A stretch of 64,000 nucleotides of DNA from an uncultured Chloroflexia bacterium. Lineage in GTDB: Bacteria > Chloroflexota > Anaerolineae > Anaerolineales > Anaerolineaceae. Shown here piece after piece: positions 4,560-38,804 of the stretch. Below the pieces are notes generated by a model. The model did not search any database, was not told the DNA's origin, and saw nothing but the letters and a program-made list of their open reading frames with translations. A program made the position numbers and the translations under genes. How positions within the stretch are numbered: position 1 is the first letter of the stretch; every line of letters starts with the position of its first letter. The stretch covers positions 300,762 through 364,761 of the forward strand of contig CAWEQO010000004.1 of NCBI GenBank assembly GCA_963811225.1, in the 5' to 3' direction.

Positions 4560-4589
4560 TTGACTTTCACCCCCGGCTCGCACTATTAT
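4560..4589 (+). promoter_or_regulatory. Sigma-70-like promoter candidate for the six-gene operon
   Basis: TTGACT (4560..4565), an 18-nt spacer, then TATTAT (4584..4589). It lies 44 nt upstream of the ATG at 4633, which has a GGGAGG Shine-Dalgarno at 4618..4623. Confidence 0.4.
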
Positions 4590-4632
4590 GTAAATGGTAG
4601 AGTTTGTCTTTTTTATAGGGAGGAATCTCAAT

Positions 4633-6099
4633 ATGTTCGCCGTGCATGCGTTTTCTCAGCAAGACCCACAGTGGAAAGAGAAAAAGCTCGGCCTCAGCAA
4701 AGAGCTGACGATTGGGCAGTTCGGCTGCCTGCTGACCTCTATTACGATGGTATCCAATGGATTCGGTTACAGCGAAACCCCGGCTTCCTTAAATGACAAA
4801 ATGGCCGCGGCAGGCGGCTTTGTGGGCGGCCTGATCCGGCCCACCACAGTCTCGAACGTGCTCCCCGGCGTTCGTTATCAAAAGCGCATCCAATGCAACA
4901 ACCCGCCTGCGCCGTTATCGGAGATCGATGCGGCCCTAAGCGCGGGGATGCCGGTAATCGTCAAGGTGGACGCATCCCCCGCCGATGGTGTGCAGGATCA
5001 CTGGATCGTCGTGGTGGGCAAGGCAGACGGAGGTGATTACTGGGTCCAGGATACCTGGCGCTTTCCCACCGAGGCGAAATTGATCTTGATCACCAGCCGG
5101 TATGGCTTTGGGCGCAAACCGAACGAAATCATCAAGGATTCCCTCTTCTACGAGGGCACACCGCGCCCGGATGCCAAAGGCAGCACGACTGTTCCTGCGC
5201 CGGTTGTGGTGGCCCCTCGCAGCGGTCCAAAGCCCATTCCTGCCAACGCATTAAATGTCTACGTCACCGCCGACAGCCTTGCTCTCCGCGAGCAGCCCTT
5301 CATTGAGAACAACATCATGCGCCGTCTGCCGATCCAGACCAGGCTGATCGTGCTGGAACCGCCGGAAGAGGCGCAGAAGAAGATCGGGGTGGACAACCAG
5401 TGGTTGGAGATCGAGGAGCCCGTGCGCCATGAGCAAGGCTATGTGGCGGCCTGGTACGTCTCGATGACCACGCCCGAGGTTCCAGATATCCCCGCTGCGC
5501 CTGACGGGACAGCAACCCAACCCCAGCAGCCCAGGCCTGAGGGCTTCGTGGTGTACGCTTCGGGCGATAACCTGGCCGTGCGCAGTAGTCCGATGATCGG
5601 GAATAACTTGCTCAAGCGCGTGCCGGTCAACACGCAATTTATTGCGCTCGACTCAGAATACTCGGCGAAACAGAAGTTCGGCAAAGAGGGCCAGTGGCTG
5701 AAGGTGCGCGATATTTCAGGGGATGAGGGCTATGTGGCTGCCTGGTGCCTGTCGCTGTACGAGTTTACCCCACCGCTGGGGCCTGTCCCGGCGACACCGA
5801 CCCCGCCTTCGGCCACCATCACGGCGGCGGTGAATGGATCCGGCCAACTGATCGTGCGGACCACCGTATCGGACCTGGCGTTCCGCTCGCAGCCGGTCAT
5901 CCTGGGTTCCACGCTGATCAAACGCCTGCCGCTGTCGACCGAGCTGCTGGCGATCGAACCGGTCAACGAGGCTGCGGCGAAGATCGGGGTGGTGAACCAG
6001 TGGATCCAAGTGCGTGATATTCAAGGGAATGAAGGCTATGTCGCAGCCTGGTACGTGGTGAAGAGTCCAAAATCATCGCTATCAGAGCAAACCGGGTAG
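4633..6099 (+). CDS. Papain-fold C39-like cysteine peptidase fused to three SH3b repeats, no signal peptide
   Basis: N-terminus FSQQDPQW..GQFGCLLTSITMV (Cys32) and DHWIVVVG (His123) resemble the Peptidase_C39_2-type Gln/Cys/His arrangement. Three repeats of about 70 aa each end in GYVAAW(Y/C)(V/L), which is SH3_3-like. Start set at the ATG with the GGGAGG SD; the ATG at 4594 lies at the predicted transcription start site. Confidence 0.75.
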   Translation: MFAVHAFSQQDPQWKEKKLGLSKELTIGQFGCLLTSITMVSNGFGYSETPASLNDKMAAAGGFVGGLIRPTTVSNVLPGVRYQKRIQCNNPPAPLSEIDAALSAGMPVIVKVDASPADGVQDHWIVVVGKADGGDYWVQDTWRFPTEAKLILITSRYGFGRKPNEIIKDSLFYEGTPRPDAKGSTTVPAPVVVAPRSGPKPIPANALNVYVTADSLALREQPFIENNIMRRLPIQTRLIVLEPPEEAQKKIGVDNQWLEIEEPVRHEQGYVAAWYVSMTTPEVPDIPAAPDGTATQPQQPRPEGFVVYASGDNLAVRSSPMIGNNLLKRVPVNTQFIALDSEYSAKQKFGKEGQWLKVRDISGDEGYVAAWCLSLYEFTPPLGPVPATPTPPSATITAAVNGSGQLIVRTTVSDLAFRSQPVILGSTLIKRLPLSTELLAIEPVNEAAAKIGVVNQWIQVRDIQGNEGYVAAWYVVKSPKSSLSEQTG

Positions 6100-6137
6100 A
6101 ACTGCTGCAGCAAGACAGGGCTGAAAGAAGGAGGCCC

Positions 6138-8237
6138 ATGAGCACAACTGCCGATCTTGAAATTGGCTTGCATCGTTATGATAGCAAGCAGTATGTCGTG
6201 GAGTTCCGCTTCAGCCCTCCAAACAGTGAGGGAGACATCCGCCTGGGGCAGAGCGACGTGATGACCGCTCAATTCGATTTTACGAAATTGAGCTCGCTCA
6301 TCTATGATTTACAGGAATACGGTAAGCTGCTGACGGCCGGGTTATTCTCCGACTCGGATGTCAAGTCTGCCTTTGCCCAGGCCTTCACAGCCGCCCAGTC
6401 GAATAGTACTCCCCTGCGCGTGCAGCTGCTGATCGGCCCGAGCGCCCCCGAGCTGCACGCGCTGCATTGGGAAACGCTGCGCGACCCCGCCGACGGCTCA
6501 CCCCTATGTACCAACCAAAATATTTTGTTCTCGCGCTACCTGAGCAGCCTGGATTGGCGTCCGGTGCGCCTGCGTCCCAAGCAGCAGTTCCGGGCCTTAC
6601 TGGTGGTGGCCAACCCGGAAGACCTGTCCGAGTTCGATCTCAACCCAGTCGATGTGCCGGGTGAGACCGGGCGTGCCAAAGCTGCTATGGAAAACGTGGC
6701 AGTCGATACGCTGCCGGACGAGCAAGGGGCGCGAGCGACGCTCAAGAACATCATCGGGCGCCTGGACGATGAGGATTACGACGTACTGTACCTGGTTGCT
6801 CATGGGGCGCTGATCAAGGACGAAGCCTGGCTGTGGCTGGAAGACGATGAGGGCTGCGTGGCCCGCACGGCAGGCAGCGATCTGGTCATGCGGCTCAAGG
6901 AGCTGGAGCAGCGGCCGCGCTTGATTGTTTTAGCGTCTTGCCAGAGCGCGGGCAAGGAGGATGCAGGCGCCGGCCGGCAGGGTGAAGCCCTGGCAGCCCT
7001 GGGGCCGCGCCTGGCCGAGGCAGGCATTCCGGCGGTGCTGGCCATGCAGGGCAACATCAGTCTCGAGACGGTCGCCGGCTTCATGCCGGAGTTCTTCAAG
7101 CAGCTGACCGACGACGGGCAGATCGACCGGGCGGCAGCGGTGGCGCGCGGAACGGTGCGCGAGCGCAGCGATGCCTGGATGCCGGCGCTGTTCATGCGCT
7201 TGCGCAGCGGCCGGATCTGGTACCTGCCGGGCTTCGGGGAGCAGCGCACGGATTTCGAAAAATGGCCCTCGCTCTTGCAGCGCATCAGCGATGGGCAGTG
7301 CACGCCTATCCTTGGTCAGGGCTTGACCGAGCCGATCATCGGCTCGCTGCACGATCTGGCCCGCCGCTGGGCCGAGAACTATCACTATCCCATGGCGCCT
7401 TACGAACGCGAGTCTTTGCCGCAAGTGGCCCAATACCTGACGATCAACCAGGACCCCAGCTTTCCCTTAGACACCCTTAAGAAGTACTTGCGCCAGGAAC
7501 TGCTGCAGAAGTTCGGGGATGATTTGCCGCCCGAGCTGGCGAAACCGAATTCGGCGCTGGACGATGTGCTGGATGCGGTGGGACGCAAGCGCTGGAAGGA
7601 CTCCCCGCAAGATCCATATCAGGTGCTGGCGCATTTACCCTTGCCGGTCTACATCACCACCACCTACAACCATTTGATGGTGGCGGCGTTGAAGGACGCC
7701 GGGAAAGACCCGCAGATGGTGGTGTGCCCCTGGAATGAGTATATTCAGCAGCCCAAATCGATCTACAACCGTGAGCCGAATTACTATCCCACCTGCCAGC
7801 GCCCGCTGGTCTACCAGCTGTTCGGCAGCCTTTCTGTCCAGGATTCGGTGGTGCTCACTGAGGATGATTACTTCGATTTCTTGATTGGGATCACCGGCAA
7901 CAAAGATCTGATCCCCCCGGTTGTGCGGGCTGCCCTGGCGAACACGGCCTTGTTGTTCCTCGGCTTCCAAATGGACGAGTGGAACTTCCGGGTGCTGTTC
8001 CGCAGCATCCTGGCTCAACAGGGCAGCGGACGCCGAGACCGCTACACCCACATTGCCGCCCAAATTGAGCCGGAAGAGGGACGGCTGCTTTCCCCAATCA
8101 ACGCGCAGCGCTACCTGGAAAATTATTTCAAAACCGAGTACATCAGCATCTTCTGGGGGAGTGCGGATGACTTTATCAAGCAGCTTTGGCAGAACTGGCA
8201 GCAGTACGGCCCAGGAGAATGCCATGACGATGCATGA
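6138..8237 (+). CDS. CHAT (caspase-like clan CD) protease fused to a C-terminal SIR2_2-like domain
   Basis: CHAT dyad: YLVAHG (His222) and LIVLASCQSAG (Cys268), preceded by LHWETLRDP. The C-terminal half follows the SIR2_2 motif order: ILGQGLT (Gly-rich loop), VYITTTYNHL (vs TTNYD), LVYQLFGSL..SVVLTEDDY (vs K-L-H-G-S..vlT..dY), LLFLGFQMDEWNF (vs GyS..D). GGAGG SD at 6129..6133. Confidence 0.8.
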   Translation: MSTTADLEIGLHRYDSKQYVVEFRFSPPNSEGDIRLGQSDVMTAQFDFTKLSSLIYDLQEYGKLLTAGLFSDSDVKSAFAQAFTAAQSNSTPLRVQLLIGPSAPELHALHWETLRDPADGSPLCTNQNILFSRYLSSLDWRPVRLRPKQQFRALLVVANPEDLSEFDLNPVDVPGETGRAKAAMENVAVDTLPDEQGARATLKNIIGRLDDEDYDVLYLVAHGALIKDEAWLWLEDDEGCVARTAGSDLVMRLKELEQRPRLIVLASCQSAGKEDAGAGRQGEALAALGPRLAEAGIPAVLAMQGNISLETVAGFMPEFFKQLTDDGQIDRAAAVARGTVRERSDAWMPALFMRLRSGRIWYLPGFGEQRTDFEKWPSLLQRISDGQCTPILGQGLTEPIIGSLHDLARRWAENYHYPMAPYERESLPQVAQYLTINQDPSFPLDTLKKYLRQELLQKFGDDLPPELAKPNSALDDVLDAVGRKRWKDSPQDPYQVLAHLPLPVYITTTYNHLMVAALKDAGKDPQMVVCPWNEYIQQPKSIYNREPNYYPTCQRPLVYQLFGSLSVQDSVVLTEDDYFDFLIGITGNKDLIPPVVRAALANTALLFLGFQMDEWNFRVLFRSILAQQGSGRRDRYTHIAAQIEPEEGRLLSPINAQRYLENYFKTEYISIFWGSADDFIKQLWQNWQQYGPGECHDDA

Positions 8238-11200
8238 TGGAACCCTACCGCCCAACCCTTATGTGGGGCCGCGCTCATTTCAGACCGGCGAGAAGATGTA
8301 TGGCCGCGACACGGAGGTGCGCAGGCTGCTCGACCTGCTGATCGCCGAGCGTATCATGGTCCTGCACTCTCCTTCCGGCGCGGGAAAGAGCTCGCTGATC
8401 CAGGCCGGATTGATCCCACGCCTGGAAACCGAGGGGTTCCACATCTTCCCAACCGTGCGCATTAACCTGGATCTGCCCTCCGGCTGCCGTGACCGCGCCG
8501 ATTGCAACCGCTATGCCTTCAGCGCGCTGATGTCGTTGGAAGAAGCCCTGGGCGAAGAACATAAGCATCCGGTGGATCAACTGACCGGCTTAACGTTGGA
8601 GGCGTATCTCTCGCAGCGTGAGGCGCCGCAGGATGAGCCGGCTTCGAAATTGCTGATCTTTGACCAGTTCGAGGAGATCCTGACGGTCGCCCCAACCGAC
8701 CAGGAAGGCAAAGCGGCCTTCTTCAAGCAGCTGGGGGCGCTGCTGCGCGATCGCAAGTACTGGGCGCTGTTTGCCATCCGCGAGGACTTCATCGCCGCGA
8801 TCGACCCATACGTCCGCCCGGTGCCGACCCGCCTGAACAACCGCTTCCGCCTGGACTTCCTGGGCGTGCATGCGGCCCTGCAGGCCATCCAGAAACCGGC
8901 ACAGGTGTCGGGTGTATCCTTCAAGGAGGATGCGGTCGAGAAGCTGGTCAACGACCTGCGCCAGGTGCGCATCCAGCAGGCGGACGGCAGCATGCAGGTG
9001 GAGTCGGGGCCGTACGTAGAGCCGGTGCAGCTGCAGGTGGTGTGCTACAACCTGTGGCAGCACCTGCCGCCCGGGACCAAGGAGATCACCCTGCGCCAGA
9101 TCACGGACGTGGGGGATGTGGACGAGTCGCTGGCGAGTTACTATGCGGAAAAGGTTAGCGAGGCGGCGCAGGCCTGCAGCTTGCCCGAACGCCGGGTGCG
9201 GGACTGGTTCGAACGACATTTGATCACCAAGCAGGGCATCCGCGGCCTGGTGCAGATGGGCTCGGAGCGGAGTGAAGGGTTGGATAACCACGCCATCCGA
9301 ATGCTGGAGAACGATCACCTGGTGCGCTCCGAGAAGCGCCTGGGATCCACCTGGTTCGAGCTGGCGCATGACCGCCTGATTGACCCGGTTCGCAAGAACA
9401 ACGCCGCCTGGATGCAGCAAAACCTCAACTTACTGCAGCGCCAGGCCGCCATTTGGATCCAGCAGGGCCGCCCGGACAGCCTCTTGCTGCATGGCGAGGA
9501 TCTGGAAAACGCCGGCCGCTGGGCAGAGGCTAATCCCAATGACCTGACGGAGGAAGAGAAAGACTTCCTGGCAGACTGCCAGGAGGCCGAAGAGCACCGG
9601 AAAGCGCAGATCGAGCAGCAGCGGTTGGAGCAGGAGCGCCGCGAGCAGTCCTTGAAGCTGGAAGCAGCCGAGAAGCTGGCGGGCTCCGAGCGGAAGCGCG
9701 CCGAGGAACAGTCGAAAGCGGCGGTGTCGCTGCGCCGGCGGGCGATCTTCCTGGCGCTGGCGCTGGTGCTGGCCCTGGGCTTGGCGGGTGTGGCCGGGTA
9801 CTACTACCAGGATTCCAACAAGAATTTCCGGGATGCTCAGTCCCAGGCGGTCACGGCGGACTCGGCCCGCAAGCTGGCCGAGAGCGCTAACGAAACGTCG
9901 GTGGTGAATGCGAGCATTGCTCAGGCGGCCAGCAACCTCTCCAACGCCGAAAGGCTGAAGGCGGAGGCGCAGAAAGGGTTGGCGGACATCGCTTCCACCC
10001 AGGCCATCGATCAGAAGAACACCGCCGTGGTGGAGTCACAGCTGCGCGGCACGGCCCAAGCCAAGGTGACCCGTTCGCGGGCGGATTCCCTGGCTTCGGT
10101 GACCTATATGCTGGCGTCGCAGCCGGACCTGCGCGACCTGCTCAGCGTGGAGGCTTTCCGCATCCTGGATACCTCGCAGACCCGGCTGGCGCTGCTGTCG
10201 TCCCTGTTGTCGGGCCAGGACGTGCTGTTTAATTCGCTGGGCTTCGGCATCCCGCCGGAAGTCTCTACGGTGACTCAGATGAGCATTCAGGGCGACGGCC
10301 AGTACGCCGCCTGGGGAAACAACGATGGAGAAGTCGTTTTCTACAGCGTCAACCAGCAGGAAGCGCTGTGGCGCAAACGGGCGCACTCGGGCGCGGTCCC
10401 GGCGGTGGCGCTGTGCAGCGCAAACGGCGAGCAGGTGCTGGCAACCGGTGGGGTAGACAATTACGTGCGGGTGTGGAACCCGATGGACGGCTCCATCCGC
10501 TGGAGCAACCGCACCCCAAACATTATCGCAGCCATCTCGATGAGCGGGGATTGCTCACAGATGGCGGTGGCAGCCGGGGCGGCGGTGGAAATCTACAACA
10601 CCCAAAGTCGCGCGCTGCTGCACCGGATCAACCAGCCGCAGGTCATTTCAAGTGTCGCTATGTCTGAGGACGGCAAACAACTGGCTGTTGGACTGCCGAA
10701 CGGGCAGATTGTGATCTACCTTACAGACAGCAAAGACACTTTCACTCTCGGATATCAAAGCGCGGCGGTGATCAGCCTGGCCTGGCTGCCGGACAACCTC
10801 ACGCTGGCCTCGACCGGTCACCAGCAGACGGTGAACCTGTGGAACACTGAGCTGCGCAAACCCGTGAAGACCTACCGGAAGGATATTGTGGGCAAATCCG
10901 ACAGCATCGCCATTAGCCCGGACGGCAAGCTGTTAGCAGCCGGGGAGGGGCGAGGCGAGGTCCAGGTGTGGGACATGGAAAGCGGCGAAATGTTTAGCTC
11001 GCAGGTGCATACCAATGACGTGGAGCACGTCGCCTTTGCCAATAACCAGGGTAAGCTGATCCTGGCATCGAGTGGAGGGGACCGGCGCGTGATTTTGACC
11101 GAGCTGCGCGTCCAGCAGCGTCTTAGCCGGACCGTGAACAACCAGGGACCATCTTCGATGGCGCTGGCGTTCAACCGGGATGGAAATTTGCTGAGCGCCG

Positions 11201-12057
11201 GCCCGCAGGACAATAAGCTGGTGGTGTTGAACATCGACGGTAAAACGATGGCCGAACCCGGCGTGCAGGTGGAGATGAGCCGCATGGCGCTCAGCGCCGA
11301 CGGCTCGACCCTGGCCGTGGGCGGCAAGGATGGCTCGATTGCAGTGGTGGCCGGTCTGGACACGCCCGATCCGGCCCCGCTGCCAGTGATCCAGGCGGCG
11401 CCCGCAGCGATTGACGGACTGGCATTCAGCCCGAACGGCAAGACGCTGGCCTCGATCTACTGCGAGGGGGGAAGTCTGGTAAACGGCCAGCCCGCTTGCG
11501 CGAAAGGCGTAATCCAGTTCTGGGACGTGGCCAGCGGCAAGTCGAAGCACTCTGATTACACCTACACGGACATTCGCTTGACTTCGCTGGTCTACTCGCC
11601 GGACGGATACACCCTGGTATGCGGCAGTAACGGCTCCTTGATCTCTTGGGATTTGACCAACGGTAAGCCGCGTATGCTGAGCAACGTTTTCGGCGGGAAC
11701 GCCAGCTGGATCTCCAGCATGGCCTTCAGCCCGGACGGCAAGACGCTGGCGGTCGGCAGCCAGGATGCCTGGGTGAGCCTGATAGATTTGGCCTCGGGCG
11801 CCAGTTACAGCCCACTGTTCACCACCCCGGGCCAGGTATTCAGCCTGACCTATGATGCGACGGGCGGCTACCTGTATTCCGGTCAAAGCGACGGCACGGT
11901 CCTGCGCTGGGACGCCAGCCCGAAGCTGTGGGTGGACACGGCCTGCCAGTTCGCCGGGCGCAACATGGCGGAGTACACCGAGTGGGACCGCTACTTGCCC
12001 GGCGATCCATACCGGCTTACCTGCCCACAGTACCCCTCTGGGGCGGCGGGATCTTAA
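8224..12057 (+). CDS. STAND-type P-loop NTPase, coiled coil, TM helix and a roughly 14-repeat WD40 array
   Basis: [42 protein letters not shown] (Walker A, K55) and LLIFDQFEE (Walker B, D147). Helical/coiled-coil region [20 protein letters not shown], then hydrophobic helix [22 protein letters not shown] (nt 9742..9807). Repeats such as [20 protein letters not shown] and GVIQFWD run to the C-terminus. The ATG at 8224 overlaps the upstream stop by 14 nt. The ORF-track start at 7921 lies inside the upstream gene and was rejected. Confidence 0.85.
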
Positions 12058-12065
12058 TCAAAAGG

Positions 12066-13997
12066 ATGGCGAGGATGAGCGCAGACTTTCTATATTTCAA
12101 CGGCGTGGATGGGGCCAGCGGAGACTACTTGCTGCCGCCGATGTCACCCGCCGACGTGAGCAAGGTGGCCACCGGCGCGCCTCTGGACGAGGCTCAGCTC
12201 AAAGAGCTGAAATGGTGGCACGAACGCTCGACCAGCGGGAACTATGGAGTCAAGGAGGGTGTGGATCCCAAGGACCTGTCTCAGGCGGGGTGGGGCGTTA
12301 TTTTCGCCCACAACGCCGATCCGGCTGTGCGAGATGCGCTAAAAGAGCTGCTCGACTGGCGCAAGCAGCAAGCCGGGAATTATTACCGTGAATACAGTGG
12401 GGCCGAGGGCTACCGTCCGGGCGAGTCGAAGCCGGATTTTTTGGCGCGCCACGGCGCGGGGCCCGGCCCGGCAGATCCAGAGAAGGTGCCGTATTATCTG
12501 CTGATCGCCGGCGATCCGGAGGCCATCCCCTACCGCTTCCAATCCCAACTGGACGTGCAGTACGCGGTGGGGCGCATCCACTTTGACCGGATCGAGGATT
12601 ACGCCGTGTACGCGCACAGTGTGGTGGAAGCCGAGAAGCAGGGATTATCACTGCCGGCTCAGGCGGCTTTTTTCGGCACGTGCAACACGGACGACCCGGC
12701 CACCAACATGAGCGCCGGTGACCTGGTGACGCCGCTGTCCGAGAGCATGGGCAAGGAGAACGAGGGCTGGAAGGTGGATTCGTGGGTCGGGGAGAAAGCC
12801 ACCAAAGCGGACCTGGCGGCGCTGATGGGCGGCGCTCAAACCCCGGCTTTGCTGTTTACCGCCAGCCACGGCATGGGTTTCCCAAACGGCGACCCGCGCC
12901 AGCTGTCTCATCAGGGGGCTTTGTTGTGTCAGGACTGGCCGGGGCCTAAAGCCTGGAAGAAGTCGATCCCCGAGGACTTCTATTTTTCAGCCGATGATAT
13001 CGGCGAGGACGCCCGCCTGTTTGGGATGATCGCCTTTCACTTCGCCTGTTACGGGGCGGGCACACCCCGCAGCGACGAGTTCGCCCAGCAGGCTTTCCGC
13101 AGCCGGGCGGATATCGCTCCGCACGCCTTCCTGGCGCGCCTGCCACAGCGCATTCTGGCGCACCCGAAAGGTGGGGCGCTGGCGGTGATGGGCCATGTCG
13201 AGCGAGCCTGGGGCTATTCCTTCAGTTGGGGCAAAGCCGGGCGACAGCTGGCGGTGTTCGAAAGCGCCCTCAAACGCCTTGCGGACGGGTTCCCGGTGGG
13301 CTCCGCGTTCGAGAAATTCAATGAGCGCTACGCCGAGTTGTCGTCGGACCTGTCGGTGGAGCTGGAGGATATCCAGTTTGGGAAGAAGGCGGACCCCTAC
13401 AATCTGGCAGGGATGTGGACGGCCAACAATGACGCCCGCAATTACGTGGTGCTGGGTGACCCGGCGGTGCGGTTGATGGTTGGAACGGGGGACGCCCCCA
13501 CGAGGCGGCCGGCGCTCGAGATTCAAGGGCCGGTTATCGAGGCGGCGGATGCGAGCGCTGCGGCCACGATCATCGCACCCGGCATGGGAACGCCGCCGCC
13601 GGCCGGGGTGGACTATGGCCTGGTGGACAACTTCCGTCAGGTGCAGGCCAACGTGAGCGAGACGCTGCAGCAGTTTGTGAACCGGCTGGGGACGTTCCTG
13701 GGCGAGGCCCTGGAGGATGCTTCCAGTTTGGAGGTGGGTACATACGTCAGCGATGACATGACCCAGGTCAAGTACGAAAAGGGTCAGTTCAGCGGGGCGA
13801 AACTGCGAGCCTATACCCACATCAAGGTCGACGGTGATACGCTCGTTTGCGTCCCTGAAGAGGATGGCGAGCTAGACCTGGCCTTGTGGAACGTGCACGT
13901 CGAGATGGTCAAACAGGCGCAAGCCAACCGGATGGAATTCCTGCGAACGGTGGTGTCGGCGGCCACCGGACTGGTCGACCTGATCAAGCCGGGTTAA
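12066..13997 (+). CDS. Gingipain/C25-like clan-CD cysteine peptidase with an unknown C-terminal domain, no signal peptide
   Basis: His-Gly/Ala-Cys dyad [10 protein letters not shown] (His268) and [12 protein letters not shown] (Cys328). C25-like landmarks are [22 protein letters not shown] and [12 protein letters not shown]. The ATG at 12066 lies 8 nt after the upstream stop. Confidence 0.7.
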
Positions 13998-14016
13998 CCT
14001 GGCAGGAGGAGTCTGG

Positions 14017-14766
14017 ATGGCGCATGAGGAGTTCGCTTTACCGAGTGCCCTGAGCGCCTGGGAAACATCCCCGGCTGGGGATGAAGCGGTTTCCTTTGAG
14101 GTTGGGGAAGCCACGGAGAAGATGCCGGTCTGGCGCACAGCCCTCCCAGACAATCCCGAAGAGGCCGAGGCTCAGTTGGAGCGGGTCGAGCGTCAGCTGC
14201 AGACCGCACAGATCGCACTGGGTGAGGTCTCGCAGCGTGTGGAGACGCTGGCAGCCGGCGGGCGCGGAGCGGCTTCGTTTGGCGTGGAGCAGCTGCCGGA
14301 GGCCGAAGCCGAGCTGCTCGCCCTGTTGGCGTCGGTGGGCGCCGAGCAGACCGGATTAAGCTTTGGCATTGCCGGTGTTTCATTGAGCGACTTCGAGCAG
14401 GCCCAGGAGTTCTTCGCTTCTTCGCTGCAGCGATTGTCGAGCGCGATCACCCGACTGGCTCTTGTAGAGACGAGCGTAGGCGGTACAGCGGTCGGCAGGA
14501 CGATGATCGATTGGAGCGGCGATCTGGAGACGGCCTGGCTGCCGCCGCTGCTGCCCGAGCGCCAACGTCAGCACGAACGCTCGCTGCAGAACGCGCTGGC
14601 GTCGCGCACGCTGCTGATGCGCATGCTGTTCACCTCGGCGCAGAGCGCGGCCAAGATTGCCGCGGCGCTGGCGGTTCCAGGCGGTGCAATCATGGCGCTC
14701 CCCGCAGCATGGAAATTCATCATGCGAATCATGCAAGAAATGGAGGAAATACAACATGGCGAATGA
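14017..14766 (+). CDS. Hypothetical coiled-coil protein with a hydrophobic/amphipathic C-terminal segment
   Basis: Helical heptad-like stretch EEAEAQLERVERQLQTAQIALGEVSQRVETL. C-terminus reads LLMRMLFTSAQSAAKIAAALAVPGGAIMALPAAWKFIM. A GGAGG-like SD (caggaggag) lies upstream. I recognise no family. Confidence 0.6.
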   Translation: MAHEEFALPSALSAWETSPAGDEAVSFEVGEATEKMPVWRTALPDNPEEAEAQLERVERQLQTAQIALGEVSQRVETLAAGGRGAASFGVEQLPEAEAELLALLASVGAEQTGLSFGIAGVSLSDFEQAQEFFASSLQRLSSAITRLALVETSVGGTAVGRTMIDWSGDLETAWLPPLLPERQRQHERSLQNALASRTLLMRMLFTSAQSAAKIAAALAVPGGAIMALPAAWKFIMRIMQEMEEIQHGE

Positions 14767-15085
14767 GTTCGAGAATGCAGTGAAGAGTGCGGCAGCGACC
14801 GTGGCGAAGTACGTGGATGACGCCGCTGAGCTGACGGTGGAGACAAAGTTTGTCGAGGCGGGGCAGCAGGGCTTTAGTGATTTCAACTCAGCCATGCCCG
14901 CCGCCCGCACCATTATTCGCCTAGACGGCGATTGCGAAGTGGTGGCGCCAATGCGCAAGACGGAGAATGGCGTGCTGGAGGTGGACACCGGGCTGTTCGA
15001 GTTACACCAGAAGAACGTGCAGACCGCGATCGACTACCGGGCACGGATCCTGGATGCGCTGCTCGGCGTGATCAAACGGGGCTGA
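14756..15085 (+). CDS. Small (109 aa) protein resembling the C-terminal domain of the C25-like peptidase
   Basis: The ATG at 14756 is preceded by GGAGGAAAT and overlaps the upstream stop by 11 nt. By-eye alignment to residues 550..643 of the 12066..13997 product: [83 protein letters not shown]. Confidence 0.6.
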   Translation: MANEFENAVKSAAATVAKYVDDAAELTVETKFVEAGQQGFSDFNSAMPAARTIIRLDGDCEVVAPMRKTENGVLEVDTGLFELHQKNVQTAIDYRARILDALLGVIKRG

Positions 15086-15166: not shown

Positions 15167-15215
15167 GTAGGGGCTGCGAAACAATCGCAGCCCCTACGTT
15201 TATTGATTCTTTTTG
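15167..15215. terminator. Intrinsic terminator closing the six-gene operon (convergent with the DUF305 gene)
   Basis: GTAGGGGCTGCGA-aacaa-TCGCAGCCCCTAC (15167..15197) followed by GTTTATTGATTCTTTTT. A weaker hairpin lies at 15092..15142. Confidence 0.6.
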
Positions 15216-15226: not shown

Positions 15227-16270
15227 TTATCGAGTTGGCTCAGGAATATTTTCAACGCTCTTCGCAAGCTGCATCGGATCGGTTGGGACGTTTTCGCCGT
15301 ACCAATTCTGCAGCATACCGGCCATCTCATTGATTTGAGCGGTCTGGGCGTACGTCATCGCCTGGCAGAGTGCGATAACATCGTAGTGAGCCGAACCGCT
15401 GGCGCAGACCTTTGACGTCACCACGGCTTGGCCGTGATGCGGCAGCATCAACTCCAGCCAGACTTTGTCAAACTGGCCGTCCGGCGTGTTTTGCAGCTCC
15501 TGGATGATAAACTCGTCCTGCTCCAGCTCGGACGGATCCTGGTACAGATCGTAGAACTTTGCCAGGTAGAAGTTCTGTTGAGCAATTTGAATCGACTGCG
15601 CTTTGCCAATCTCTTCGCACAAGCTGCGCAGCTCTGCGTGTGAGGCTCGTTGCATGCACTCGTAAGCCATCCGCACGGCCACATTGTGGTGCACGATCAT
15701 GAAGGGCATGAAGTCCTTCTCCACCTGCTGGCCGGTTTGACGGTATGAGTTGTTGAGCACCGCTTGCAAGAACTGCGACTTGTAGCTTTCCGGCTGATCG
15801 ACGCTCGACATTGGTTCGGAGGCCATCATCTGCTCGACCAACGCCATGACCGCGTTCTTTGGCCCGGCGGCTGCGGCCGCGCCGGTTTGAGGAATGCCCA
15901 ACGTAGGCGTGGCAGCCGGGGGGTTGCCATCCAGATACTTAGGGGTCGGGCTAGGGACGGCAGGCAGCGTATTGATCGGGGTCGGGCTCGGCGAGAGCGC
16001 GACTTGCGTCCCTGCGGGCGTAACCTGCGGCGACGGAACCATGTAGGTGCCCTCGAAGGTTGGTGTTGGGCTGGGGGTCGGTGAGGCGCCTGCGGTAACG
16101 GGCGTCGAGCTGGGCAGCGAGGTATTCATCGCGGGCGTGACGCTCGGCAGGAGCGTCACTTGAGCTTTCCCCGGCGCGGCGAAGCCAACGGATGCCGTTC
16201 CGGCAAGCACAGCAATCACAAGAATGGCGGCAAGATACTGCGCCATTTTCGGTAGATTTATTTTTTTCAT
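15227..16270 (-). CDS. Secreted DUF305-domain protein with a PT/ST-rich linker
   Basis: Signal/TM region MKKINLPKMAQYLAAILVIAVLAGTASVGFA and a proline/threonine-rich spacer. The C-terminal domain has two HH motifs (MIVHHNVAV, LMLPHHGQAV) typical of DUF305. Start set at the internal ATG (M10 of the track ORF). Confidence 0.75.
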   Translation of the reverse strand: MKKINLPKMAQYLAAILVIAVLAGTASVGFAAPGKAQVTLLPSVTPAMNTSLPSSTPVTAGASPTPSPTPTFEGTYMVPSPQVTPAGTQVALSPSPTPINTLPAVPSPTPKYLDGNPPAATPTLGIPQTGAAAAAGPKNAVMALVEQMMASEPMSSVDQPESYKSQFLQAVLNNSYRQTGQQVEKDFMPFMIVHHNVAVRMAYECMQRASHAELRSLCEEIGKAQSIQIAQQNFYLAKFYDLYQDPSELEQDEFIIQELQNTPDGQFDKVWLELMLPHHGQAVVTSKVCASGSAHYDVIALCQAMTYAQTAQINEMAGMLQNWYGENVPTDPMQLAKSVENIPEPTR

Positions 16271-16476
16271 GTTTATTTCCCACCTTTTTGTAACCATTAA
16301 ATTTTGTATTCAGTCTATCGGTCGCACATATCGCATCCTATAAGAGCGCTTCTTCTTTGTCTATAGGAGAATCCAGGTGTAAAAAAGTAGGGAAAACCCC
16401 CAATGTTCTGTGGTTGAGTGAAGAGCTGGAACGGACTTCCAAAGCGCGGCAGGCTATCTCCTTGTGGATAGATCAC

Positions 16477-16510
16477 AAAAGACCGGCCCGCTTATTCGGG
16501 CCGGTCTTTT
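16477..16510. terminator. Intrinsic terminator hairpin
   Basis: AAAAGACCGGCCCG-cttattc-GGGCCGGTCTTTT lies directly 3' of the minus-strand hemerythrin-like gene. Confidence 0.6.
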
Positions 16511-16532
16511 GGCGTTGTTCGGTTGACATCAT

Positions 16533-17204
16533 TTACATCAAAAGGAACGGCTGCATGGAAATCCACTTATCCTTCCAGACGACCGGCACCAGTTCCTGGG
16601 TCACTACCGGCGGCAGCATCCTTGACCATGTCATCCTGTCTTCCGGGGAGAGATTGTAAAGCATAAACGGCAGCAACAGGTAATCGGGCTGCGAAGTTTT
16701 TATGCCGTGCTCGGACAACTTGCGCTGCATATCCACTTCCTCGTACTCTTTGAAGACCTCGCGGATCCTTTTGACCGTCAAAACCTCTTCTTCCACCGGA
16801 ATGTGCCGGGCCCAAATCTCACGGAGCTGCTCCATCTGAGCCGAGATGGAGGATAGCGATTCCTGATCGCTTTGCCCACCGGCCGCGCGGTCGAGCTGGT
16901 GGTTGATTTGTTCCAGGACGGTTTGCATTTGCTGGTGCTCCGCGCACAGCGTATCCACGGGTGCAGTAGGAATGCGCACTCTTAATTCGGGAAAGGTGAT
17001 ATCATCTTCGCCGGTATGGTGCGAGTGCAGCATGATCGATAGGCTGCGGATGAAGTTGAAGAAGCCCTCGCGGGTGGAATCGTCCGGGAAGCCGGAAGCG
17101 ACGAAACGCAGGCTGTGGTCTAGCCCAACCTGAATGGCGCGGGTGGCGATGCGATGGATAATCAAGAGATCTCTAGCGAGGTTGACTTGAGTAGGTTCGG
17201 CCAT
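16533..17204 (-). CDS. Hemerythrin-like (HHE cation-binding) domain protein
   Basis: His/Glu motifs LHSHHTGEDDITFPEL, CAEHQQM and HIPVEEEVL are spaced as in hemerythrin-like domains. Confidence 0.7.
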   Translation of the reverse strand: MAEPTQVNLARDLLIIHRIATRAIQVGLDHSLRFVASGFPDDSTREGFFNFIRSLSIMLHSHHTGEDDITFPELRVRIPTAPVDTLCAEHQQMQTVLEQINHQLDRAAGGQSDQESLSSISAQMEQLREIWARHIPVEEEVLTVKRIREVFKEYEEVDMQRKLSEHGIKTSQPDYLLLPFMLYNLSPEDRMTWSRMLPPVVTQELVPVVWKDKWISMQPFLLM

Positions 17205-17356
17205 AATTTTCCTCCTTTTGCCAAATCATTCGATGGGTCTGTTAGAATACGATTATGTTGGTTTCTATGCGATTGATCGCGATTATACAACATTTAGCAC
17301 TAAATTGATAGTTAATATCTTTAAAATTTAGGGAAAATACCCAAAGGAGGGAAACG

Positions 17357-17755
17357 ATGTCACTCGAAGGGATCACAACGTTCGAGATCTTGCGTTGGGA
17401 CGAAGAAGCCTATTCCGAGGTGGAGGGAGCCGGGAAATTGACTCTGGCCAGCATCGACAAGACCTACGAGGGCGACCTGACCGGCACCGGGGCACTCAAT
17501 TATTTGATGAACTACAACACGGACGGCACGACCAACTTCCTTGGTTACGAGCGGGTGGCCGGTAAAGTCGGTGGGCGCGAGGGCAGCTTCGTGCTGAAGC
17601 ACGAGGGCGTTGACGATGGCAAGGTGGTGCGCGGCAACTGCGTGGTCATGCCCGATTCAGGTACGGGCGAACTCTCGGGATTGCAAGGTGGGGCCAGCTA
17701 TGCGCTCGGTCGCATGGAAGGCTTTTCAATGACGTTCAGTTTCGATTTGCCGTAA
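17357..17755 (+). CDS. DUF3224-like small beta-rich protein
   Basis: 132 aa with a GGAGGG SD. Pattern: KTYEGDLTGTG..LMNY....GYERVAGKVGGREGSFVLKHEG..G. Confidence 0.65.
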   Translation: MSLEGITTFEILRWDEEAYSEVEGAGKLTLASIDKTYEGDLTGTGALNYLMNYNTDGTTNFLGYERVAGKVGGREGSFVLKHEGVDDGKVVRGNCVVMPDSGTGELSGLQGGASYALGRMEGFSMTFSFDLP

Positions 17756-17773
17756 GGGGGATAATTCGATAAC

Positions 17774-17809
17774 CGTCAGGGGCGCCGATGACCATCGGCG
17801 CCCCTGACG
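17774..17809. terminator. Bidirectional terminator hairpin (17-bp stem)
   Basis: CGTCAGGGGCGCCGATG / CATCGGCGCCCCTGACG lies between convergent genes. Confidence 0.65.
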
Positions 17810-17821
17810 CTCGTTTAATCA

Positions 17822-19288
17822 TCAGGTTCGTTTCTTGATGGAAAACCCGACAATCAATGCCAACCCTACCACAGCCATGCCGATGAAGAAGAAGCCGAAG
17901 GGGGCGTTCTTGCCCAACGAGAAGGCAGGCTTGGGTGTAGGGGTGGGCGGGACCTGTGTGGCGTTCGGATGCACGGCGGTGGCACGGATGGTGGGCTTGG
18001 CGGTGTTGGAGGGGAGGGGCGTGGCGGTGGCGGGACCAGGAGTAGGCGTGATCGTGGCGGGTGGGGTGACTTGCAGAACCAGCTGCTGGTCGGGGTACAG
18101 GATCGAATCCATGCCCAAGCCGTTCCAGGCCATCAGGTCGTTTAGCTGGATTTCGTACAGCTGGGCAATGTAGGCCGGGTTTTCGCCGCTGTGGACGGTG
18201 TGGTAATACTTGCCGTCGGCCGCCGGGGTCAGCTTTTCGATGGGCGTGAGCGGGCGGGGTGTGGGGCTGGGGGTGATGTCGCCGGGGTAGATGAGCAGTT
18301 TCTGCCCAATCTGCAGCGGCCAGTCGGCCTGCAGGCCGTTCAGCTGCAGGATGGTGTCGATGCTGACCTTGTAAGCCTCGGCGATGGAGGTCAATGTCTG
18401 GTAGGCAGCCACGGTGTGGACGATCTTGCCGTCCGGACCGGGTGTGGCGACCGCAAACCAGCCGACCGGAGTGGGGGTAGCGTAACCTTTGGTGTTTTCG
18501 CCTGGAATAAAGAGCTTCTGCCCAATCAGCAATCCGCCACTGCTGGAGATGTTGTTGAAGTACTCGATGTCTTTGATGGTAACTTTGTAGGCGATAGCGA
18601 TCGACCAGAAGGACTGCCCGGCCTGGACGACGTGATAGATGTTGCCGTCCTCATCGGGCTTAGCCACTTTGACAGGCACGATGATCTGCGAGATGCCGCC
18701 GGCGCGGCCCTCGTTGGTGGTGCCTTCGGTGTTGGGCTTCCAGCCCTCGGGCGGCTTGTACTCGCCGCAGGCCTTATTGGAAGTGTAAGCCGCTTGCAGC
18801 ACGTAGTAGGTCAGGCCGTTGGCCGACTTCGCCACGCCTGCGCCGACGTTGCAGTAGGCCGGGTTGACCGCAGGGATCATGTGGGATGGGTCGGCCCAGA
18901 CCAGCATGACCTCGTCGATCGACATGTGCCCGACGGCGAAGTTCTCGGTGCCCCATACGGTCGCACTGCCGCCGTAGCCTGCCGAAGCCAGTCGCCCGGA
19001 GACGTCGCCAATGTGCCATGACATCTCGTTAGCCGCCATGATCTCGGCCGTCCCCTGCGCCACCGCATCGATGATCGGGTCCTCAATCAGGGCCGGGAGA
19101 CCGTTGGACGAGCGCAGCGTGTTCATCGCTACAATCAAGTCGTAGGCGGTAACGCCGTCGGCCAGCGGTGCGGCCGGGGGCGCATCCAACAGAATGCTCG
19201 CCTGCGCGTCCGTTCCAATCGGCGGGACGAGCCATCCGGCCAGCAGGACAAGTAAAATAAACCAGCGAGTTAGATGAGTAGAGCGCAC
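17822..19288 (-). CDS. Secreted CAP (SCP/PR1-like) domain protein with three LysM domains and a C-terminal membrane anchor
   Basis: Signal peptide, then LRSSNGLPAL..AQGTAEIMAANEMSWH..GTENFAVGH (CAP-like). Three LysM units follow (YHVVQAGQSFWSIAIAY.., HTVAAYQTLTSIAEAY.., HTVHSGENPAYIAQLY..). C-terminus is FGFFFIGMAVVGLALIVGFSIKKRT. Confidence 0.8.
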   Translation of the reverse strand: MRSTHLTRWFILLVLLAGWLVPPIGTDAQASILLDAPPAAPLADGVTAYDLIVAMNTLRSSNGLPALIEDPIIDAVAQGTAEIMAANEMSWHIGDVSGRLASAGYGGSATVWGTENFAVGHMSIDEVMLVWADPSHMIPAVNPAYCNVGAGVAKSANGLTYYVLQAAYTSNKACGEYKPPEGWKPNTEGTTNEGRAGGISQIIVPVKVAKPDEDGNIYHVVQAGQSFWSIAIAYKVTIKDIEYFNNISSSGGLLIGQKLFIPGENTKGYATPTPVGWFAVATPGPDGKIVHTVAAYQTLTSIAEAYKVSIDTILQLNGLQADWPLQIGQKLLIYPGDITPSPTPRPLTPIEKLTPAADGKYYHTVHSGENPAYIAQLYEIQLNDLMAWNGLGMDSILYPDQQLVLQVTPPATITPTPGPATATPLPSNTAKPTIRATAVHPNATQVPPTPTPKPAFSLGKNAPFGFFFIGMAVVGLALIVGFSIKKRT

Positions 19289-19342
19289 TCCGGTATTATA
19301 AGGGTAAAATTAAAGAACTGACAAGGCCAAAGGAATCAACTC

Positions 19343-21451
19343 TTGCCCACCAAATCTCCTATCTATCGCTTTTTGGATCGAATTGCACTGGCGCTGTTCC
19401 CATCGGCGTCTGGGTTAAGCGAGCGCGAGCATGTTGCCTTCGTCGGCGATGTGGTTGGCTCGCTGTATACCCTGCCGCTGGCGCTTGGCGGGCTGGTGTG
19501 GCTGATCACAGCGACCGATCCAGGCAGCCTGGTCCTGCAGCTGCCGTCGCTGGCGGTTACGCTGGTCCTGACACTGCTGCTGTTCCGCTTTGACTTTGTG
19601 GCGCTGATCGAACTGACCCCGGGGGCCATTTCTGACATTAGCGGAACGCTGGCAAACGTGCTGTCGGTGGCGGCGGTGTTGATGTTTGGGGTTAACGGGT
19701 TATGGGTGGCGTTCCTGGCCGAATTGGGGTATCAGTGGATGCACTACGGCGGAACCCGACCGTTGAACCGGCGGCTGAATGCCTTGCGCAATCTGGGGGT
19801 CAACCTCGCGCACATCCTGCCGGGTGGGATGGCCGTTCTGGCCCTCTACCATGCAATTGGCGGGGCGATCCCACTGGCGGGCCTGAGCCTGCCGGCCATT
19901 GGGGTCGGGCTGGTGTTCTGGATGGCCTGGGCAGCGGCGGGCGTGCTGGTCTGGCTGCCGATGCTTCTATATATCGGCTACAGCCTCGATTGGCTGCGCG
20001 CCGGTCAGAATGCATGGCCGCTGCTGCGCTTCTTCCTGATCTCGCTGGTGTTGTTCGACGTGGGTGGCGCTTTCGGGCCGCTGGCGGCGGGCCTGTATGC
20101 GGCCTTTGGCATGCCCGCTTTTCTGTTCTTCTCCGTGGCCCTGCTGCTGGTTGGCTTCCTGGCTAACCGTTTCAGCCGTGCACTGGTGCGGGTCCGGCGG
20201 CAGACGACCTTGTTGGAAGGGCTGGAGCAGCTGGGCCGTGAGCTGATCGCCGCGCCGCCGCAAGTGCAGGCCATCTCGCGCATCCTCAACGACTACCTTA
20301 CCAATGCGCCGCTGCTCATGCCGCGCCGGGCCGAAGTGCGCCTGCGAGACGGCTCTCTGCTGGCGCATTCACCCGCAGACTGGCAGCCCAACCTGGAAGC
20401 GGCCTGGGACTGGATGTGGGCGCACGAGTCCGCGCTGGTGGCGCTGCCGCGCCAAGAGCTGCCCTGGGGCGGCAGCCTGTATGAAGAGAGCCTGGTGTTC
20501 GTGCCGATCGAGCGGGAGTTTGCGGAGGACGGATTCGACCCGCGCTTCTTGGGTGGGCTGTACATGCAGGCCCGGCTGGGACCGTTCGTCGGGCGCGACC
20601 AGCGCGAGATGCTCAACATGCTGACGCCGGCGATGCGCACCCTGACGGCGCAGGTGGCCGGAGCGCTGCAGCACATCGACGATTACCAGACTGCGCTGGA
20701 ACGCCAGCGCATGGAGCGTGAGCTGGAGCTGGCCGGGCAGATCCAATCCACCTTTTTGCCGGATGCCGACAACGTCCCGCGCTTGCCGGGCTGGCAGGTG
20801 TCCGTCTCACTGCAGTCGGCCCGCGAGACCTCGGGTGACTTCTTCGACCTGATCGAGCTGCCTGGCCAACGGATGGGGGTGGTGGTGGCAGACGTGGCCG
20901 ACAAGGGCGTGGGCGCGGCGCTCTACATGGCGCTGTCGCGCACTTACATCCGGGCGATTGCCCTGGGCGGAATGGACTGCTGCCCTGGTCAGACGCTCAG
21001 CGCCGTCAATCGGCGCATTCTAGAGGATACCCACTCCGACCAGTTCGTGACCGTGTTTTACGCCGTGCTGGAATCGGTGACCGGCAAGCTGGCCTACGCC
21101 AATGCCGGGCATCCCCCGGCGCTGTGGCTGCCGGCGCAGGTTGAACGCCCGGTGCAGCCGCTCACCCGAACCGGAATGGCGCTGGGCGTCATGAAAGACG
21201 AGACGGTGGCGGAGGGCAGCATCCTCATGGCTGCGGGCGACCTGCTGGTGTTCTACAGCGACGGCATTTCCGAGGCCGAAAACAACCAGGGCGAACCGTT
21301 TGGGATCGAGCGGCTGGCGCAGACGCTGGCCGGTTTGCGCGGGATGGAAACAAGGGATGTGCAGGCGGCAATCCTCGAACGGGTGCGGGAGTTTACACAG
21401 GGCGCGGCGCAGATGGATGACATGACCTTGCTGGTGGTAGGAAGAGAGTAA
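19343..21451 (+). CDS. Polytopic-membrane SpoIIE/PP2C-family serine phosphatase
   Basis: About 280 aa of multiple TM helices, a linker, then the PP2C/SpoIIE motifs LELAGQIQSTFLP, SGDFFDLIEL, VVVADVADKGVGAALYM, YANAGHPP and DDMTLLVV. The start is a TTG per the track and is uncertain. Confidence 0.85.
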   Translation: MPTKSPIYRFLDRIALALFPSASGLSEREHVAFVGDVVGSLYTLPLALGGLVWLITATDPGSLVLQLPSLAVTLVLTLLLFRFDFVALIELTPGAISDISGTLANVLSVAAVLMFGVNGLWVAFLAELGYQWMHYGGTRPLNRRLNALRNLGVNLAHILPGGMAVLALYHAIGGAIPLAGLSLPAIGVGLVFWMAWAAAGVLVWLPMLLYIGYSLDWLRAGQNAWPLLRFFLISLVLFDVGGAFGPLAAGLYAAFGMPAFLFFSVALLLVGFLANRFSRALVRVRRQTTLLEGLEQLGRELIAAPPQVQAISRILNDYLTNAPLLMPRRAEVRLRDGSLLAHSPADWQPNLEAAWDWMWAHESALVALPRQELPWGGSLYEESLVFVPIEREFAEDGFDPRFLGGLYMQARLGPFVGRDQREMLNMLTPAMRTLTAQVAGALQHIDDYQTALERQRMERELELAGQIQSTFLPDADNVPRLPGWQVSVSLQSARETSGDFFDLIELPGQRMGVVVADVADKGVGAALYMALSRTYIRAIALGGMDCCPGQTLSAVNRRILEDTHSDQFVTVFYAVLESVTGKLAYANAGHPPALWLPAQVERPVQPLTRTGMALGVMKDETVAEGSILMAAGDLLVFYSDGISEAENNQGEPFGIERLAQTLAGLRGMETRDVQAAILERVREFTQGAAQMDDMTLLVVGRE

Positions 21452-38552: not shown

Positions 38553-38625
38553 GGGCCTGTAGCGCAGTTGGGAGCGCGCTTCAATCGCACTGAAGAGGTC
38601 GAGGGTTCGAATCCCTCCAGGTCCA
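38553..38625 (+). tRNA. tRNA-Ala (anticodon CGC)
   Basis: Hand-folded cloverleaf. Acceptor GGGCCTG/CAGGTCC with a G3:U70 pair, D arm GCGC-AGTTGGGA-GCGC, anticodon arm CTTCA-ATCGCAC-TGAAG, T arm GAGGG-TTCGAAT-CCCTC, discriminator A. No CCA is encoded. Confidence 0.9.
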
Positions 38626-38674
38626 CTTGAAGCGAGCCCCGACCCGGCAGGTTGGTTGGTTGACAGTAGAATAA

Positions 38675-38747
38675 GGGCCCATAGCGCAGTTGGGAGCGCG
38701 CCTCAATGGCATTGAGGAGGCCGAGGGTTCGAATCCCTCTGGGTCCA
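38675..38747 (+). tRNA. tRNA-Ala (anticodon GGC)
   Basis: Acceptor GGGCCCA/TGGGTCC with a G3:U70 pair, anticodon arm CCTCA-ATGGCAT-TGAGG, and the same D and T arms as the neighbouring tRNA. Confidence 0.9.
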
Positions 38748-38804
38748 CTAAAATCAGGGAGTCGGGAATGAAAGAGGGTTCTGACTCCTTAATCGTTTAA
38801 ATGC

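Follow-up and report, generated by a model that had tools for sequence, protein, structure and literature searches.

We analysed a window of 64,000 nucleotides from an uncultured Chloroflexia bacterium (assembly GCA_963811225.1, contig CAWEQO010000004.1, positions 300,762 to 364,761), in which the last three genes of an operon share a small domain, here named X. One copy (X1) ends a C25-like, caspase-fold cysteine peptidase (PEP), a second (Xy) lies within the 249-residue protein Y, and a third (X2) forms the whole of the last, 109-residue gene product. The three copies are shown to be ancient paralogues of one undescribed α-β-α domain. As read from the sequence, the unit is a triad and not a pair: PEP with its linker and X1; Y with an N-terminal region, Xy and a hydrophobic tail; and X2. 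The original prediction, made from the letters of this stretch by a model, had proposed that the same domain occurs fused to an effector protease and alone within one operon, which our analysis confirmed. The cassette of peptidase(-X1), Y and X2 recurs in ~45 Chloroflexota and Acidobacteriota loci. Our best model, that X is a protease-coupling or assembly domain of a new protease-gated effector module in a bacterial NLR-like operon for cell death or immunity, with Y and X2 as a conserved and possibly membrane-active pair, is as a whole a little less than evenly probable.

Homology of X1 and X2: X1 comprises the last 115 residues of PEP (13650..13994, + strand), as supported by BLASTP, Smith-Waterman alignment, hhalign and AlphaFold2 (AF2) models. 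X2 is encoded at 14756..15085 on the + strand, its ATG preceded by GGAGG. The two share the domain at the positions first proposed, and all of these methods concur. First, BLASTP of X2 against PEP matched the last ~100 PEP residues, with 28 of 102 positions identical (27%) and E=0.003 for this single comparison; the earlier estimate of roughly a quarter, made without counting, was correct. The four motif pairs originally quoted all lie in register, the last of them (LVDLIKPG / LGVIKRG) outside the confidently aligned part. Second, the Smith-Waterman score (BLOSUM62) was 67, against shuffle means of 27-32 with a standard deviation of ~4.7 (z ~7.7-8.3), and in each of three shuffle schemes 0 of 2000 shuffles matched it. 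Third, hhalign aligned the X2 family (43 homologues) with the PEP-tail family (21 homologues) over 94 columns at a probability of 98.0% and E=1.9e-13. Since the score beats the shuffled controls and the predicted folds, compared below, agree, the observation stands.

The X2 homologues (n=97) are all 90-143 residues long and have no Pfam entry; an exact-sequence look-up of the X2 protein itself returned no record. The PEP-tail homologues (n=38) are likewise all short proteins, which is not proof of a free-standing X1 because most are contig-end fragments or split genes. A joint alignment of X1 and X2 contains six invariant columns, T30, D57, D59, P65, H84 and R95 in X2 numbering, and seven further columns conserved at 90% or more. 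H84, V88, A91 and R95 fall on one face of the C-terminal helix (i, i+4, i+7, i+11). In this alignment X1 and X2 of the window are 24% identical, and X1 of other loci gives 22-32%, compared with 44-79% among X2 orthologues. This difference between and within types suggests that X1 and X2 are distinct specialised subunits, not interchangeable homotypic adaptors.

Predicted fold: the AF2 models of X1 and X2 agree in topology: an N-terminal helix of 22 residues is followed by a sheet of 4-5 strands and a C-terminal helix of 30-35 residues. Their confidence is similar, with a predicted local distance difference test (pLDDT) value of 83 for X2 and 87 for X1 and a predicted template-modelling score (pTM) of 0.67 and 0.69, respectively. 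The X1 model (H2-24, five strands, H77-112) carries an extra β-hairpin insert relative to X2. The X domain has no Pfam, NCBIfam or PADLOC match. No Foldseek match at E<0.01 was obtained for either model in the PDB or for the X1 model in BFVD, the best PDB E-values being 0.58 for X2 and 0.05 for X1, and a profile search of PDB sequences gave spurious matches only (e.g. GroEL, E=0.014). Death and CARD domains are all-α six-helix bundles, and no such chain was among the top 50 PDB matches of either model. With a predicted α+β fold and no significant match to a PDB chain, X is not Death/CARD-like. YbaB/EbfC proteins, which have an α-β3-α tweezer fold, share the order of long helix, small β-sheet and long helix and were matched by the X1 model only (PDB 1pug and 1ybx; TM 0.35-0.44, E 0.39-0.91). 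None was among the top 50 PDB matches of the X2 model, and the two families differ in lacking any sequence similarity. YbaB works as a dimer, and we treat this weak resemblance as a lead, not a match. Among the papers searched on nSTAND1/CHAT, EACC1, PCaspase and STAND/WD40/caspase-like systems, none describes the cassette, and we regard the X domain as a new, uncurated family.

The third copy: Y (14017..14766, +) was studied in an alignment of 46 sequences and has no Pfam, NCBIfam or PADLOC match. The pattern of its C-terminal half, AWVET..G..aRT.vgWsGD..T.W....LH.rsL.lAl.sR, is reminiscent of the signature of X, VET ... ART.I.LDGD ... H...V..A...R. The core of the Y family matched the X profile in hhalign with a probability of 93.4% and E=2.5e-7, and the C-terminal half alone with 94.7-95.4% and E=5.6e-8 to 5.6e-9 over 92-97 columns. 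The match covers the whole domain, from the N-terminal helix through the VET strand and the hairpin to the C-terminal helix. This divergent copy, Xy, spans residues ~125-216 (14389..14664, +) and retains the VET, RT, GD, H and R positions. A fourth copy in the N-terminal half of Y was ruled out (hhalign probability 0.1%).

Two further features of Y bear on its possible function. The Ala/Leu/Gly/Pro-rich segment IAAALAVPGGAIMALPAAW (14656..14712, +) is its most hydrophobic 19-residue window, with a Kyte-Doolittle value of 1.69. In each of the 46 homologues the most hydrophobic window is the equivalent one, which begins 32-59 residues before the C-terminus; the median value is 1.65, and 27 of the 46 reach at least 1.6. 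The same scan found no window of 1.6 or more in X1 or X2. The N-terminal half holds three conserved h-S-F motifs, with S-F at residues 26-27, 87-88 and 115-116 (14092-14097, 14275-14280 and 14359-14364), the serine being retained in 30-41 and the phenylalanine in 35-42 of the 46 sequences. Judged by eye from its Ala/Leu/Glu-rich composition, Y looks helical.

Fusion partners: a hidden Markov model (HMM) built from the joint X1+X2 alignment was searched exhaustively against 1.84 billion representative proteins. With clusters formed at 50% identity, 803 were found at E<=1e-3 and 516 at E<=1e-10; architectures were read in the best 146. The domain ends 15 or fewer residues from the C-terminus in 140 of these 146 representatives. 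X2-type copies are nearly all solo, 27 of them preceded by no more than 15 further residues. In 62 clusters an X1-type copy sits on a C25-like peptidase, and the other X1-type copies carry a linker only, with a few exceptions. P0229 joins Peptidase_C39_2, SH3 and X1 and is homologous to the protein that opens the operon described here; at locus L055 such a C39_2-SH3-X1 fusion is directly followed by Y and X2. P0267 joins CHAT to X1. A JGI metagenome scan found no genomic context for it, and the context was taken from ORF 6450-8876 of locus L042, which corresponds to P0267 and has a matching linker sequence. There, two C25-like peptidases without X lie upstream of CHAT-X1, and Y and X2 come after it. 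The fourth architecture, P0147 (2675 residues), combines Trypsin_2, nSTAND1, four tandem X2-like repeats and WD40. On inspection by eye, its repeats (residues 990-1330) seem to be preceded by another Walker A motif (GMPGIGKT, ~930) and followed by what may be a Walker B motif (CLDAY, ~1356); either they are inserted in a second NTPase domain or the gene call is chimeric.

The partners are hence C25-like, C39_2-SH3 and CHAT proteins and one trypsin-STAND protein, all of them containing a peptidase; no nuclease, TIR or similar partner was seen in the best 146 clusters. This analysis shows that Y and X2 are the constant part and the peptidase the variable part, and that X1 travels with the coupled peptidase. 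Because Y and X2 stay constant while X1 sits on three different cysteine peptidases, each followed by Y and X2, X1 is best understood as a coupling or docking module. The adaptor logic of the original prediction survives in this sense, and its comparison with CARD/Death-like domains is lost to the α+β fold.

The surroundings of the cassette vary. The STAND and CHAT-SIR2 genes frequently precede it; in L026, L037 and L044 they are found downstream or on the opposite strand, and the fetched flanks of L017, L018, L025 and L032 do not contain them. A variant cassette (L006, 7707-14419) consists of PEP-X1, a second X1-like gene and Y; the genes after it encode ADP-ribosylglycohydrolase, Peptidase_C14 (caspase) and Amidase_2 proteins, which suggests further swapping of effectors or regulators around the same core. 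At L048 an X2-like domain ends a 243-residue stop-to-stop open reading frame (ORF). An X2-like gene at L047 (9923-10348) reads LDGES in place of LDGD and has no peptidase, X1 or Y nearby; its neighbours are housekeeping-looking genes and, judged by eye from motifs, a convergent pair of a vWA-like protein and a ChlI/MoxR-like ATPase.

Linker and fission: local HMMs and phmmer were used to score the stop-to-stop ORFs of 54 loci, of which 47 came from a genome scan and 7 surrounded tail homologues that were split or stood alone. More than 25 of these loci encode peptidase and tail as one continuous chain. Between the two lies a low-complexity Pro/Ala-rich linker (13482..13649, + strand, in the window), which measures 50-90 residues across loci. 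The window linker contains VDYGL (13608-13622), and in 35 of 45 loci, fused as well as split, the segment examined directly before X1 contains a motif [DNE][YF]G[LVIMFW]. The pattern [DNE]-[YF]-G-[LVIM] and the h-S-F motifs of Y are similar short aromatic motifs in regions that resemble linkers and may be shared docking or cleavage sites.

On three metagenome-assembled genome (MAG) contigs, L001-L003, from two ENA assemblies (ERZ25039483 and ERZ25039603), gene calling gives peptidase and tail as two overlapping genes whose frames differ. The frame breaks, each a single frameshift, lie in the linker (L001, 9806-10041), within the peptidase domain (L002, 9989-10032) and in the middle of X1 (L003, 9947-10023). 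A programmed frameshift or genuinely separate genes were rejected, as the three positions are unrelated and two are inside conserved domains; on the same grounds the splits are attributed to indel errors of what we suspect are long-read assemblies. The short fragments met in the protein searches arose because gene calls in these two assemblies split real genes. Genuine fission occurs in one clade (L004/L005, L027-L029, L040, L049 and L053), where a ~480-residue peptidase closes at a stop and a separate X1 gene of 170-220 residues begins within what was the linker; two of these loci, L004 and L005, were assembled independently from two sequencing runs. Since this clade carries X1 as its own gene, the domain appears to work with or without covalent attachment. 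The X1 product of the fission clade begins with a conserved MTD(T/S)RPTADIPAMPDF peptide, which corresponds to the (E)RPT(I/A).E motif after the peptidase domain in fused forms. It could serve as a non-covalent docking peptide for the peptidase.

Peptidase and conservation: PEP with its X1 tail (12066..13997, +) belongs to an ORF of 11928-13997, whose likely start is the ATG at 12066 or 12075, giving 643 or 640 residues. Its match to Peptidase C25 (PF01364) is weak and partial, 24.7 bits against a cut-off of 23, and no PDB relative was found by sequence. Its sequence places it as a distant member of the Peptidase C25/caspase-haemoglobinase fold. Among 41 homologues, H265-G266 and A324 are conserved in 100% and C325 in 95%, and with the His-Gly and Ala-Cys dyad kept the enzyme is presumably active. 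Median identity to the window across loci is 61% for the peptidase, 56% for X1, 54% for X2, 57% for CHAT, 59% for SIR2 and 52% for the NTPase. The fast-evolving parts are Y (34%), the fastest protein of the cassette, and WD40 (26%). A conserved NTPase with divergent WD40 in the STAND protein is the pattern of a fast-diversifying sensor, as in immune receptors.

Operon and setting: six co-directional + strand genes (4594-15085) follow one another with small gaps or overlaps, and the first 11 nt of the X2 gene are also the last 11 nt of Y. A promoter-like site (4560-4589) precedes the first gene (4594..6099, +), which encodes a 501-residue C39-like papain-fold peptidase with bacterial SH3 repeats (Pfam Peptidase_C39_2 5e-7, SH3_3 9e-16). 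The second (6138..8237, +) encodes a 699-residue fusion of CHAT, a caspase-fold peptidase, with a SIR2-like domain (CHAT 2.7e-29, SIR2_2 2.5e-21) and gives weak PADLOC matches to ThsA-SIR2 and SAVED_CHAT. The third (8230..12057, +) encodes ~1275 residues of nSTAND1 NTPase and WD40 β-propellers (nSTAND1 4.8e-35, WD40 7.9e-37), presumed to be the sensor of the operon. Next come PEP, Y and X2, and a terminator-like hairpin with a 13-bp stem and a T-rich tail (15167..15197, +) closes the operon; the gene downstream is convergent. The nearest relatives come from Chloroflexota (Anaerolineales-like) MAGs. Flanking segments at 3455-4405 (-) and 15227-21451 are syntenic with L001 and L003, where the equivalent flanks encode a diacylglycerol-kinase-like protein upstream and hemerythrin, DUF3224, CAP/LysM and SpoIIE proteins downstream. 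Because of this synteny, the operon is placed in an ordinary chromosomal context, with no evident mobile element or defence island. Elsewhere in the window, positions 38553-38748 hold a tandem pair of tRNA-Ala genes (anticodons CGC and GGC) separated by 49 nt; the pair is ordinary and supplies the window's only matches that reach an Rfam gathering score.

Proposed mechanism: as X1, Xy and X2 are homologous, assembly among paralogues is the simplest mechanism. The three copies would form a hetero-oligomer, in which X1 on its Pro/Ala-rich tether would hold the peptidase next to Y and X2. The four tandem copies that P0147 carries in cis fit a domain working as a multi-copy bundle. The nSTAND1-WD40 protein would sense a trigger and oligomerise, upon which the caspase-fold peptidases would be activated, CHAT perhaps before the C25-like enzyme, by analogy with the CHAT-PCaspase pair. 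The tethered peptidase would then process the Y/X2 complex; candidate cleavage sites are the S-F motifs of Y and the D-Y-G-L motif before X1. Cleavage might free the hydrophobic C-terminal segment of Y, possibly together with X domains, and, as in analogous systems, lead to membrane damage and cell death or arrest. The SIR2 domain would deplete NAD+ in parallel. In its most specific form the proposal makes X1-Y-X2 a hetero-oligomeric cell-death executioner, built of three paralogues of a new fold and licensed for membrane attack by peptidase cleavage; this form we hold as tentative and rather doubtful.

Several observations weigh against a protease-coupled effector complex. The operon lies in ordinary chromosome, with no clear sign of a defence island around it. 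By its median Kyte-Doolittle value of 1.65, the hydrophobic tail of Y is only borderline as a transmembrane segment. The CHAT-X1 fusion appears to come from a single genome, and the C39-X1 fusion is known from two sequences that are 97% identical. X2 is absent in L006 and L062 and Y in L043, so that a strict three-part complex is not universal, and at L047 an orphan X2-like gene occurs without the cassette. Finally, the six invariant and mostly polar residues (T, D, D, P, H, R) might mark a ligand or metal site.

Of the other explanations, the first is that X2, and X1 once released, are latent toxins which the neighbouring peptidase trims into pores, Y being an accessory or anchor. The models for this are Pepco and EACC1, small non-enzymatic proteins that stand beside defence proteases and form pores after cleavage (Evans et al., bioRxiv 10.1101/2025.11.14.688446). 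Pepco is a pre-assembled β-barrel oligomer that becomes active once its C-terminal tail is removed. X2 resembles both in its 109 residues, its lack of enzymatic motifs and its place beside a cysteine peptidase, and resembles Pepco in an N-terminal helix followed by β-strands. The high conservation of X1 and X2 and the size of the family, 803 clusters, also agree with such a role. We take Pepco, or Trypco2, to be PF19631. The 43 X2 members gave no Trypco2 (Pepco) or EACC1 match at E<=1, no Trypco match was obtained for PEP or Y at that threshold either, and X1 and Y had no Pfam match to EACC1. Eight Y homologues matched no Pfam or PADLOC profile, bacterial gasdermin included. Moreover, X1 and X2 have no hydrophobic segment, that element being on Y, and their C-terminus is a long conserved helix and not a disordered, removable tail. 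We think this explanation unlikely.

Second, X2 might be a domain-only decoy or inhibitor that competes with X1 for a common partner or, by binding X1, holds the peptidase off, like CARD-only proteins or PCi. The original prediction had named inhibition and competition, beside tethering, as possible roles of the small protein, and nothing in our analysis came to favour them. The idea can appeal to X2 being a solo copy of the protease-attached domain in the same operon, to its being dispensable in L006 and L062, and to the precedent of a small inhibitor of a prokaryotic caspase (bioRxiv 10.1101/2023.06.23.546230). Against this, X1 and X2 are old specialised paralogues at ~25% identity, which makes a common binding surface unlikely. 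The conservation of X2 equals that of the catalytic domains, and its gene overlaps that of Y by 11 nt, which together suggest a stoichiometric subunit. The third copy in Y also leaves a two-way competition model incomplete, and we consider a decoy quite improbable.

Third, X could be a ligand- or metal-binding regulatory domain, with a site of T, D-G-D, H and R, that senses for example a SIR2-derived nucleotide and gates the peptidase. The six invariant and seven near-invariant, mostly polar positions of X1 and X2, five of them kept in Y, would suit such a site, as would the common helix face of H84, V88, A91 and R95 and the SIR2 enzyme encoded in the operon. The conserved polar residues could equally form a buried network or a subunit interface, however, and the domain has no fold or sequence match to a known ligand-binding domain. 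The cassette also occurs without nearby SIR2 or STAND genes (L017, L018, L025, L032 and L055), and regulation by a ligand seems highly improbable to us. Last, a chance or compositional similarity of X1 and X2, or a fusion made by assembly error, to which the modest pairwise E-value of 0.003 and the three related long-read MAGs with peptidase and tail called as separate overlapping genes might point, is refuted by the shuffles (z ~8), the hhalign E-value of 1.9e-13, the shared predicted topology and the intact fusions in more than 25 other loci, the L001-L003 splits at three positions being indel errors, and its probability is negligible.

Significance: the apoptosis and pyroptosis machinery of animals is held to have its ancestors or analogues in those NLR-like (STAND) systems of bacteria that contain caspase-fold peptidases. 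The connection from protease to executioner is known for a few modules only, and the immune systems of the Chloroflexota, a filamentous phylum, have to our knowledge been little studied experimentally. A domain that occurs on the protease, within a partner with a hydrophobic tail and by itself leads to the prediction of an effector complex that assembles itself and is coupled to the protease. If the coupling model is true, X would be a new adaptor or assembly fold in prokaryotic cell-death signalling, and the cassette a new effector class in Chloroflexota. In the more specific executioner form of the proposal, it would join gasdermin, Pepco and EACC1 as a protease-gated effector class, and would be the first whose effector domain doubles as a docking module for interchangeable peptidases (C25-like, CHAT and C39).

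Comparison with known systems: the X domain invites comparison with the effector-associated domains (EADs) of NTPase-centred conflict systems (Kaur et al., eLife 2020, PMC7159879) and with bacterial Death-like/CARD adaptors (Kaur, Iyer, Burroughs and Aravind, eLife 2021, PMC8195603). As in those systems, the same small domain is found on different polypeptides of adjacent genes in an NTPase-centred system, and the architecture suggests that like binds like. The differences are several. Among the ORFs of window positions 1-22000, the X HMMs match only the PEP tail and X2, leaving the STAND and CHAT-SIR2 proteins without X; elsewhere, P0147 is an exception, with its four repeats inside a trypsin-nSTAND1-WD40 protein. 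Adjacent X1 and X2 are distant paralogues and not each other's closest relatives. X is a C-terminal domain, whereas the usual position of an EAD is N-terminal on the effector, and its fusion partners are essentially limited to cysteine peptidases. Three of the four EAD hallmarks that we checked are lacking in X, and the fourth, promiscuous fusion to effectors of many kinds, is seen only in part. From the Death-like adaptors it differs in being α+β and not of the all-α death fold.

A second comparison is with the system in which a CHAT peptidase activates a second caspase-like protease, PCaspase, alongside a small inhibitor, PCi (Steens et al., bioRxiv 10.1101/2023.06.23.546230). Both have two caspase-fold peptidases and small accessory proteins in one operon, which suggests an initiator-executioner arrangement. 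Here, in contrast, the sensor is a STAND NTPase and not SAVED with cA3, the second peptidase is C25-like and not C14, and PCi is predicted to be CI-2-like and unrelated to X.

The closest parallels are the Pepco, EACC1 and gasdermin modules. Like them, the X cassette keeps a peptidase beside small non-enzymatic proteins of ~110-250 residues, is combined with STAND-type sensors and sometimes stands without them, and belongs to filamentous or multicellular bacteria. The Pro-Gly-Gly centre of the hydrophobic element of Y loosely recalls the small-residue patch of the EACC1 transmembrane helix. Unlike them, it contains its characteristic domain three times, with one copy fused to the peptidase, and keeps its peptidase separate from the sensor protein; from Pepco (Trypco1/2) and EACC1 it also differs in having no sequence match to either. 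A protease with dedicated small partners and varying sensors, the arrangement of a protease-effector module, was found at ~45 loci, with the peptidase type swapped in two cases. By these sequence features, the cassette is probably a variation on the effectors that are linked to proteases in STAND-type conflict systems.

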